Assembly (NCBI RefSeq): GCF_003334815.1
Contig: NZ_QOWO01000008.1
Length of the DNA stretch: 64,000 bases
Direction: 5' to 3' (one strand)
Source: Escherichia coli
Lineage (GTDB): Bacteria; Pseudomonadota; Gammaproteobacteria; Enterobacterales; Enterobacteriaceae
The notes beneath the pieces were generated by a model. The model saw only the letters and a list, made by a program, of their open reading frames with translations. It did not search any database and was not told the origin of the DNA. Position numbers and translations under genes: made by a program. Shown piece after piece: positions 1 to 10,003 of this stretch. Numbering within the stretch: position 1 is the first letter of the stretch; every line of letters starts with the position of its first letter.

Positions 1-75
1 GTTATCGTGAGAGTAATTCATCGGCACGTTAAATCATATCAGGCGTAATACCACAACCCTTAAGTTAGCGCTTAT
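1..75 (-). mobile_element. insL: IS186 terminal region (partial, continues beyond left edge): terminal inverted repeat plus start of transposase gene (ATG at 21 reading leftward, MNYSHDN...)
   Basis: Minus-strand reading of 1-75 gives CATAAGCGCTAACTTAAGGGTTG... followed by ATG AAT TAC TCT CAC GAT AAC, which I recall as the IS186 end and InsL N-terminus; junction abuts GGGGGTTTACCCC (77-89), the G-run/C-run target IS186 prefers. From memory, no search run. Confidence 0.6.
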
Positions 76-198
76 GGGGTAAACCCCCGGGCGCGTTCCT
101 TTATCAAGATGACGTTCGAATATTCCGGCAGGTGCAGTTTGTTTATTCCAGAAAGGCGTTGAGCGCGTATGAATATAATTCTGTGGGATTTGAAGCAT
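76..198 (-). pseudogene. yeaR: yeaR 5' fragment (codons 1-41 of DUF1971 protein) interrupted by IS186
   Basis: Minus-strand ORF from ATG at 198 translates MLQIPQNYIHTRSTPFWNKQTAPAGIFERHLDKGTRPGVYP, matching recalled YeaR N-terminus, then diverges into IS-derived sequence and stops at 34-36 (54 aa total vs about 119 aa expected). Confidence 0.5.
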
Positions 199-261
199 CC
201 TTTTCCCTCCTTCGGTGAATGCGCTGAAAACGGTTTATTCCAGCCGTTTCAGGGTACGCCT

Positions 262-288
262 GATAATTTGCATTTTAAATACCATTTA
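262..288 (-). promoter_or_regulatory. Candidate NsrR operator in yeaR promoter (AATTTGCATTTTAAATACCATTT, imperfect inverted repeat)
   Basis: Resembles the AAGATGCATTT-N-AAATACATCTT type NsrR box; lies about 65-90 nt upstream of the yeaR ATG. yeaR-yoaG is a known NsrR/NarL target. Confidence 0.3.
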
Positions 289-370
289 TTGGTTACTTTT
301 TAGCACCATATCAGTGAAGAATCAGGGAGGATTATAGATGGGAAGCCCGCGACAACGCGGGCTGAAAGCA

Positions 371-1078
<708 letters not shown>

Positions 1079-3293: not shown

Positions 3294-3437
3294 TTCGTTC
3301 TTTGCAGTAAATAACCTGCGTCATTTCACCTTTTATTGTTTCCGTTTCGTGTTTTATGGCTTTCCGTATTCTTAATTGTTTAATTTATGTAACATGCAAA
3401 TTTTGTTACGCGTACGTTAGGTTCCGCCGTACAGGTA

Positions 3438-4883
3438 TTGGTTTTGCTGGCAATGGGACTGGTGATTTATTTAGCCACCAGTAAATACGGCAATATTCGT
3501 CTTGGCGAAGGAAAACCGGAATACAGCACGCTCTCCTGGCTGTTTATGTTTATTTGTGCCGGTTTAGGTTCTTCTACGCTTTATTGGGGGGTTGCTGAAT
3601 GGGCCTATTATTATCAAACACCTGGATTAAATATCGCACCGCGTTCACAACAGGCACTCGAATTTAGCGTTCCCTACTCTTTCTTCCACTGGGGCATCAG
3701 CGCCTGGGCAACTTATACGCTGGCCTCATTAATCATGGCTTATCACTTTCATGTGCGGAAAAACAAAGGTCTGAGCCTTTCCGGCATTATTGCTGCTATT
3801 ACCGGCGTTCGCCCGCAAGGCCCATGGGGAAAACTGGTCGATTTGATGTTCCTGATCGCCACTGTCGGCGCACTGACCATTTCCCTTGTTGTTACCGCAG
3901 CAACCTTTACCCGTGGGCTTTCCGCGCTGACCGGTTTACCCGATAACTTCACCGTGCAGGCATTTGTGATCCTGCTTTCCGGCGGCATTTTTTGCCTAAG
4001 CTCGTGGATTGGTATCAACAACGGTTTGCAACGTCTGAGCAAAATGGTTGGCTGGGGCGCGTTCCTGCTGCCATTACTGGTGCTGATTGTCGGCCCAACC
4101 GAATTTATTACCAACAGCATCATCAATGCCATCGGCCTGACCACGCAAAACTTCCTGCAAATGAGCTTATTCACCGATCCGCTTGGCGATGGTTCATTTA
4201 CCCGCAACTGGACCGTTTTCTACTGGCTGTGGTGGATCTCATACACCCCTGGCGTAGCAATGTTTGTCACCCGCGTTTCCCGCGGTCGTAAGATTAAAGA
4301 AGTTATCTGGGGACTGATCCTCGGCAGCACCGTCGGTTGCTGGTTCTTCTTTGGCGTAATGGAAAGCTATGCCATTCATCAGTTTATCAATGGCGTAATC
4401 AACGTCCCACAGGTGCTGGAAACACTGGGCGGCGAAACAGCTGTACAGCAAGTTCTGATGTCGTTGCCAGCCGGTAAATTGTTCCTCGCCGCATACCTGG
4501 GCGTGATGATTATTTTCCTTGCCTCGCATATGGATGCAGTGGCCTACACCATGGCGGCGACCAGTACGCGTAATCTCCAGGAAGGTGACGATCCTGACCG
4601 TGGGCTGCGTCTTTTCTGGTGCGTGGTGATCACTCTGATCCCGCTTTCCATCTTGTTTACCGGTGCTTCGCTGGAAACGATGAAAACCACCGTCGTGCTC
4701 ACAGCCCTTCCCTTCCTCGTCATTTTACTGGTGAAAGTCGGCGGGTTTATTCGCTGGCTGAAACAGGATTACGCCGACATTCCGGCTCATCAAGTTGAAC
4801 ATTATCTCCCGCAGACACCGGTTGAAGCCCTGGAAAAAACGCCAGTGCTCCCTGCGGGAACCGTATTCAAAGGCGACAACTGA
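3438..4883 (+). CDS. yeaV: BCCT-family transporter (carnitine/betaine-type)
   Basis: 481 aa polytopic membrane protein with BCCT signature region; precedes yeaW-yeaX. Confidence 0.88.
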
Positions 4884-8244: not shown

Positions 8245-8335
8245 GTTTTCTCTTTAGTGGGCGTCAAAAAAAACGCCGGATTAACCGGCGTCTGGCGTCT
8301 GACGACTGACTTAACGCTCAGGCTTTATTGTCCAC
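8245..8335 (-). ncRNA. sroD: Candidate SroD small RNA (fadD 3' region / rnd upstream)
   Basis: Recalled from the literature as lying between rnd and fadD; exact ends not verifiable here. Overlaps the fadD terminator hairpin. Confidence 0.25.
8266..8290 (-). terminator. Intrinsic terminator downstream of fadD
   Basis: Palindrome CGCCGGATTAACCGGCG with a U8 run on the minus strand (A8 at 8264-8271 on plus). Confidence 0.55.
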
Positions 8336-10003
8336 TTTGCCGCGCGCTTCGTCACGTAATTCTCGTCGCAAAATTTTTCCGACGTTAGATTTCGGTAACT
8401 CATCACGAAACTCCACCAGCTTCGGTACTTTGTATCCCGTGAGCTGACGGCGGCAAAAAGTCACCAGTGACTCTTCGGTAAGCGATGGATCTTTTTTCAC
8501 TACGAAGATTTTCACCGCTTCACCACTGGAGCCGGAAGGTACGCCAACAGCCGCGACTTCCTGTACGCCAGGATGCTGCATGACGACATCTTCAATCTCG
8601 TTGGGATAGACGTTAAAACCGGAAACCAGAATCATGTCTTTTTTACGATCGACAATGCGCAGGAATCCTTCTTCATCCATTACCGCGATGTCGCCGGTGT
8701 GTAACCAGCCATTTTTGATGATTTCATCGGTAGCATCGGGACGCTGCCAGTAACCCAGCATCACCTGCGGTCCTTTGACACAAAGCTCACCCGGTTGACC
8801 TGGTGGTACTTCATTATCATCATCATCCACCAGTTTGGCTTCCGTCGACGGCACCGGCAAACCGATGCTACCACTATGATAATCAATATCATATGGGTTA
8901 ACGCTGACCAGCGGCGCACACTCGGTAAGGCCATAGCCTTCCAGCAGATACTGTCCGGTCAGTTTCACCCAACGCTCTGCCACCACTTGCTGCACTGGCA
9001 TCCCACCGCCTGCGGAAAGATGCAGACTGGAGAAATCCAGCTGCTGGAACTCTTTATTGTTCAGCAACGCATTGAACAAGGTGTTAACGCCCGTGATAGC
9101 GGTAAACGGATATTTCGCTAACTCTTTTACCAACCCTGGAATATCGCGCGGGTTAGTGATAAGCAGGTTCTGCCCACCCAGTTCGATAAACAGCAGGCAG
9201 TTAATGGTCAGGGCAAAAATGTGATACAGCGGCAGCGCCGTCACCACCAGCTCTTTGCCCGGATGCAACAGCGGACCATAGGTCGCGTTAACCTGTTCCA
9301 GGTTCGCCAGCATATTGCGGTGAGTCAGCATCGCGCCTTTCGCCACACCAGTGGTGCCGCCGGTGTATTGCAGAAAAGCTAAATCTTCCGGCACCAGTTC
9401 GGGTTTGACGTACTGCATCCGGTAGCCGTTATGCAGTGCGCTACGAAATGAAATGGCATCTGGCAGATGGTATTTCGGCACCAAACGCTTGATGTATTTA
9501 ACAACGAAATTGACTACCGTGCCTTTTGCCGTAGATAGCTGATCGCCCATACGGGTCAGAATTACGTGCTGAACGGCGGTTTTATCAACCACTTTTTCCA
9601 GTGTGTGAGCAAAGTTAGACACGATAACAATCGCCGATGCGCCGCTATCGTTAAGCTGATGCTCAAGCTCACGCGGGGTATACAACGGGTTAACGTTTAC
9701 GACGATCATCCCGGCACGCAAAATGCCAAACAGCGCCACCGGATATTGCAATAAATTAGGCATCATCAACGCAACGCGATCGCCTTTCTTCAGCCCCAAC
9801 CCTTGTTGCAAATAAGCGGCAAACGCGCGACTGCGTTCTTCCAGCTTGCGGAAGGTCATTACCTCCCCCATATTCACAAACGCAGGTTGATCGGCGTAGC
9901 GCGCGACCGACTGCTCAAACATATCTACCAGAGATTGATAACGGTCAGGGTTGATCTCCGTCGGAACGTCCGCGGGATAACGGTTAAGCCAAACCTTCTT
10001 CAA
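8318..10003 (-). CDS. fadD: Long-chain fatty acid-CoA ligase
   Basis: AMP-binding enzyme; 561 aa from TTG at 10003 ([10 protein letters not shown]...), ORF-track 583 aa form is an upstream extension. Confidence 0.9.

Follow-up and report, generated by a model that had tools for sequence, protein, structure and literature searches.

IS186 is an insertion sequence of the IS4 family. Lee et al. 2016 (PMC5009759) showed that it prefers GGGG(N6/N7)CCCC targets, that 7 of the 59 reconstructed sites had one or two bases that did not fit this motif, and that the element lands in both orientations because the flanks of the target are palindromic. One of the genes in which it has been found is yeaR, the leading gene of the yeaR-yoaG operon, which is induced by nitrate/nitrite and NO (literature cited in PMC6307192). 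The MG1655-derived founder strain PFM2 carries an extra IS186 inside yeaR (Lee et al., PMC5009759), and IS186 was repeatedly found in yeaR of antibiotic-evolved MG1655 lines (Hoeksema et al., PMC6307192). The yeaR::IS186 allele is already known and is an ordinary polymorphism, present in the REL606 reference genome and in at least two papers (PMC5009759, PMC6307192).

The window, i.e., the whole stretch of 64,000 nucleotides of E. coli DNA analysed here, opens on such a junction (Table 1), and we are nearly certain that an IS186 copy has landed in codon 41 of yeaR, the window starting 76 nt inside this copy. Positions 1-76, for which IS186 identity had been proposed from the letters alone, proved on the reverse strand to be identical at 76/76 positions to the annotated start of MG1655 IS186A, and they include the terminal inverted repeat and the MNYSHDN start of insL near the left end of the element. 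The 23-bp inverted repeat CATAAGCGCTAACTTAAGGGTTG has a single match in the whole window (54-76, minus strand), with 0 occurrences expected in shuffled sequences, and the same 23-mer caps both ends of IS186 in K-12, UMNK88, UMNF18, NEBExpress and 52F4. The insL ATG occupies nt 56-58 of the element, about 55 nt inside its left end, and corresponds to the annotated start of insL1 in MG1655 IS186A and of the transposase CDS in 52F4. Relatives that share the junction have the full insL of 370 codons in their annotation, whereas the window holds seven of these codons.

On the other side of the junction, the open reading frame at 198..34 on the minus strand encodes MLQIPQNYIHTRSTPFWNKQTAPAGIFERHLDKGTRPGVYP, which equals residues 1-41 of MG1655 YeaR, and then runs on as ISANLRVVVLRLI until a stop codon. 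The first-pass annotation was right in its essentials and had rightly described a yeaR frame of 41 codons followed by foreign sequence. It had placed the switch at 75/76; the comparison with MG1655, in which 1-76 have no match in yeaR, puts the real break at 76/77 since the match begins at position 77. Position 76, the last base of codon 41, is supplied by IS186, which changes the native CCA to CCC and keeps the proline. The stop of the chimeric frame lies 12 nt upstream of the insL ATG and in frame with it. In relatives, PGAP labels the equivalent stretch of yeaR as 'DUF1971 domain-containing protein, incomplete, missing C-terminus'. MG1655 itself has an intact yeaR, and the claim that it carries no IS186 at this position was correct.

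Table 1. Features at the IS186 end of the window (coordinates are window positions)
Feature	Position	Strand	Remarks
IS186 left (transposase-proximal) end	1..76	-	100% identical to nt 1-76 of K-12 IS186A
insL, first seven codons (ATG 21-19)	1..21	-	translation MNYSHDN
Chimeric 54-codon ORF	34..198	-	YeaR residues 1-41 and 13 element-encoded residues; stop 36-34
IS186 23-bp terminal inverted repeat CATAAGCGCTAACTTAAGGGTTG	54..76	-	exact match
Target-site duplication, right-hand copy GGGTAAACCC (10 bp)	77..86	.	native MG1655 site; relatives
yeaR 5' fragment (codons 1-40 and 2 nt of codon 41)	77..198	-	identical to MG1655 yeaR
leuE-yeaR spacer with yeaR-yoaG promoter region	199..370	-	intact; now reads into IS186

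The native MG1655 site reads GGCGT-GGGTAAACCC-CCGGG on the plus strand of the window. Framed to the motif, it is GTGG-GTAAAC-CCCC (+ strand), i.e., GGGG(N6)CCCC with one mismatch, and the site thus agrees with the preferred GGGG(N6/N7)CCCC type except for this one base. How the motif maps onto the duplication is illustrated by the site of IS186A in K-12, GGGG-ATCACT-CCCC, whose 10-bp duplication GGATCACTCC comprises two G, the core and two C. The earlier reading of the junction, GGGGGTTTACCCC, had been taken as a GGGG-N-CCCC target. This string corresponds to positions 88-76 on the minus strand, the C at its end being already the terminal base of IS186, and the native counterpart in MG1655 is GGGGGTTTACCCA; the assignment to the G-run/C-run type holds, but the fourth C belongs to the element and the native site carries one mismatch. 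In four relatives (loci L001, L002, L003 and L005), GGGTAAACCC is present at both ends of IS186, which terminates there in CATAAG...CTTATG and is 1,339 bp long (1,343 bp in the UMNK88 copy); whether the terminal C is given to IS186 or not decides between a duplication of 10 bp and one of 11 bp. The same-orientation strain 52F4 harbours a full IS186 of 1,339 bp that is 100% identical to K-12 IS186A and flanked by the 10-bp duplication, and the complete element with its second inverted repeat is present in 52F4, CV601 and UMNK88, which share the junction. UMNF18, NEBExpress, REL606 and Dam/Dcm likewise have a full copy with the duplication, but in the opposite orientation. The UMNK88 copy (L001, 2734-4076; 1,343 bp) differs from K-12 IS186A by 4 extra bases and has a transposase that is annotated as frameshifted; either true decay or sequencing errors in homopolymers could be behind this.

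According to the mechanism that we propose, the InsL transposase selected a core with a G-run on one side and a C-run on the other, a pattern that GTGG-GTAAAC-CCCC in yeaR matches apart from one base, and staggered cuts 10 bp apart led to the duplication of GGGTAAACCC. In this strain, insL points in the same direction as yeaR. We infer that this strain has the whole IS186 and the 3' part of yeaR beyond the left edge of the window, where the remaining ~1,263 nt of the element, ending in CAACCCTTAAGTTAGCGCTTATG on the window minus strand, would be followed by GGGTAAACCC and by yeaR codons 42-119. A separate survey of the window for target-like GGGG(N6)CCCC sequences with at most one mismatch gave 7 matches, compared with 17.25 +/- 4.41 in dinucleotide-preserving shuffles, so that such sequences look depleted; 2 of the 7 are the yeaR junction itself, and a perfect GGGG(N6)CCCC site was found nowhere in the 64-kb window.

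The disruption had been called strain-specific in the first-pass annotation, of which the absence from MG1655 is right and the strain-specificity is not. Using a 152-nt probe centred on the window junction and requiring full coverage, we found the junction in the same orientation in 196 of 5,426 complete E. coli genomes, while IS186 in the opposite orientation at the same 10 bp occurs in 255 of the 5,426; carriers of the latter were first seen as probe matches that covered only 54-152, i.e., from the inverted repeat onward. The empty yeaR site was found in 4,963 of these genomes, and the site is occupied in either orientation in 451/5,426, about 8%, where the counts are of genomes and not of events and laboratory clones are over-sampled, as illustrated by 17 mouse-gut derivatives of one O16:H48 strain among the listed matches. 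IS186 is present in 2,147-2,221 complete genomes, the higher figure coming with 7,828 chromosomal matches, and the yeaR site accounts for ~6% of the chromosomal copies and is occupied in approximately one fifth of IS186-bearing genomes. The use of both orientations at this site is as expected of a palindromic target.

These counts bear on the alternatives to a simple insertion. The window ends within IS186 with the far side of the element outside it, and IS186 copies are known substrates of recombination (PMC5009759; RRE-IS186 event, PMC4173774), hence the junction might represent one side of an IS186-mediated inversion or deletion between two copies, in which case the 3' part of yeaR would not follow beyond the element. 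We regard this as very improbable. The far-side (left) junction matching the window orientation was detected in 197 genomes, and its near equality with the 196 right-hand junctions indicates simple insertions and not rearrangement breakpoints; furthermore, the order yoaG-yeaR'-IS186-'yeaR-leuE was seen in every relative inspected, and positions 77 to 64000 of the window are collinear with MG1655 (1,879,827-1,943,743). Repeats such as IS186 often break assemblies and the edge of the window falls inside one, so a collapsed repeat at the contig or window boundary could also have joined an IS186 end to yeaR artificially, but the chance of such an artefact is close to negligible given that the junction is base-for-base identical in 196 independently finished genomes, is located exactly at an IS186-type target and is accompanied in relatives by the 10-bp duplication that such an insertion should leave. 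A yeaR allele that has diverged naturally and has a merely IS186-like 3' part, which the first-pass annotation had itself named as the contrary case, has nothing in its favour beyond the continuous 54-codon frame and is refuted by the 76/76 identity to IS186A including the inverted repeat and the insL start, by the end of the frame after 13 foreign codons, and by the 4,963 genomes in which the site is uninterrupted.

The strain itself is close to K-12, yet not of it. Over the collinear part, 17 substitutions and a single 7-bp insertion set the window apart from MG1655. Its closest complete genome is that of 52F4 (calf, Switzerland); this strain shares the IS186 insertion and its orientation, but 30 kb of alignment with the window still hold 8 SNPs and a gap of 7 bp. 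Derivation from K-12 was considered and rejected, for 17 SNPs over 64 kb contrast with the 0-1 substitutions that true derivatives show over 18-27 kb; the window therefore comes from a close K-12 relative.

Several small differences were noted along this background. The leuE-yeaR spacer (199..370) equals that of MG1655 except for one private SNP at position 315, which is T in the window and C in MG1655, in 52F4 and in all of the best 40 matching genomes listed; it is located upstream of the yeaR promoter region. No perfect match to window positions 1-400 was found among complete E. coli genomes. The 7-bp insertion is a tandem duplication, GGCGTCT GGCGTCT, at 8287-8300, with a single copy in MG1655 and 52F4. 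It lies in the spacer between the 3' end of fadD and rnd, within a match to the Rfam SroD sRNA (8267-8359, minus strand) and just 5' of its terminator hairpin, and was present in 0/5,423 complete E. coli genomes, the best identity being 114/121. The gene yeaV (window about 3402-4883) is intact, with 1,446 nt, in the MG1655 record. PGAP calls it a pseudogene in 52F4, CV601, Dam/Dcm and REL606 ('missing N-terminus') and gives it an internal stop in UMNK88, a discrepancy that seems to come from differing annotation models or from an ancestral 5' truncation.

The Pfam domain DUF1971 spans residues 12-96 of intact YeaR, and the full domain is lacking in the window copy; since only residues 1-41 of the protein are retained, yeaR in the window is a disrupted gene. 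The truncated product would consist of 41 native and 13 foreign residues with most of DUF1971 gone. Because truncation at residue 41, within DUF1971 (12-96), removes most of this domain, YeaR is very probably inactivated, judging from its sequence, as the first-pass annotation had also thought likely. To our knowledge, no clear phenotype of yeaR::IS186 has been described. The gene yoaG is located downstream of yeaR in the same operon (MG1655, 52F4) and would now have ~1.3 kb of foreign DNA between itself and the operon promoter, making a putative polar effect with reduced yoaG expression plausible. A consensus scan of the full IS186 of 52F4 gave 2 terminator-like sequences on the yeaR strand versus 1.8 expected, none of them convincing, and polarity on yoaG is therefore an assumption; the corresponding promoter scan of the same element gave 0 promoter-like sites.

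In the window orientation, the yeaR promoter points straight into insL. In IS10 and IS50, RNA structure masks the transposase start. No structure masking the insL start was detected in the yeaR'-IS186-insL leader, whose fold was no better than that of shuffled sequences (z = +0.96). As the chimeric frame ends 12 nt short of the insL ATG and in register with it, it is tempting to speculate that read-through combined with translational coupling could make insL respond to nitrosative stress. The high occupancy of the site might also reflect selection for the loss of yeaR-yoaG and not mutational preference alone, perhaps combined with a nitrosative-stress-inducible insL, an idea that we put forward as a rather unlikely one.

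The yeaR site is a recurrent hot spot that has been hit independently and in both orientations in natural isolates, E. coli B and K-12 lines. CV601 carries IS186 in yeaR in the window orientation and its flanks show 1 mismatch to MG1655 in 27.4 kb, while Dam/Dcm (NEB) carries it in the opposite orientation with 0 mismatches in 17.9 kb; as both sets of flanks are MG1655-identical and the orientations are opposite, these K-12 lines gained the insertion separately. The porcine ETEC strains UMNK88 and UMNF18 likewise have IS186 in yeaR in opposite orientations, UMNK88 sharing the junction of the window and UMNF18 having the opposite one, and the 1,339-bp element in yeaR of NEBExpress is 100% identical to K-12 IS186A. 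The small number of landing sites that IS186 favours has been described before; other sites of the GGGG(N6/N7)CCCC form include fimA, menC and the lon promoter. As a consequence, a given gene is struck repeatedly, in either orientation, in strains that are unrelated, and sharing yeaR::IS186 is thus a poor guide to common descent. Beyond strain typing, for which yeaR::IS186 is a handy marker of this lineage versus MG1655, the insertion has little significance, and in annotation yeaR should be treated here as a pseudogene.

Among the known systems, the K-12 laboratory lines with IS186 in yeaR (PFM2, antibiotic-evolved MG1655, CV601, Dam/Dcm and ET12567) have the insertion in the same gene, and CV601 is identical to the window in junction and orientation. 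These lines differ from MG1655 by 0-1 positions in the flanks, whereas the window differs by its 17 SNPs and the 7-bp duplication over 64 kb. E. coli B REL606 (NC_012967.1, 1,856,818-1,858,526) and a BL21-type strain have the same element at the same 10-bp target GGGTAAACCC, and their yeaR is broken in the same way, leaving 41 codons in the 5' piece and 83 in the 3' piece, but IS186 is opposite to that of the window with the transposase divergent from the yeaR promoter, and the yeaR allele is unlike that of the window (98% over 99 nt). The three MG1655 copies IS186A/B/C (insL1-3) have an end sequence identical to that in the window and the same type of target, but they reside at other chromosomal locations, and the IS186A site is a perfect GGGG(N6)CCCC, compared with one mismatch at yeaR. 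The IS186 insertion that causes Lon deficiency resembles the one in yeaR in being recurrent and site-specific, in using a G-run/C-run target and in the lost expression of the adjacent gene, and differs from it in being located in a promoter and having a strong phenotype, whereas the insertion described here interrupts a coding sequence.
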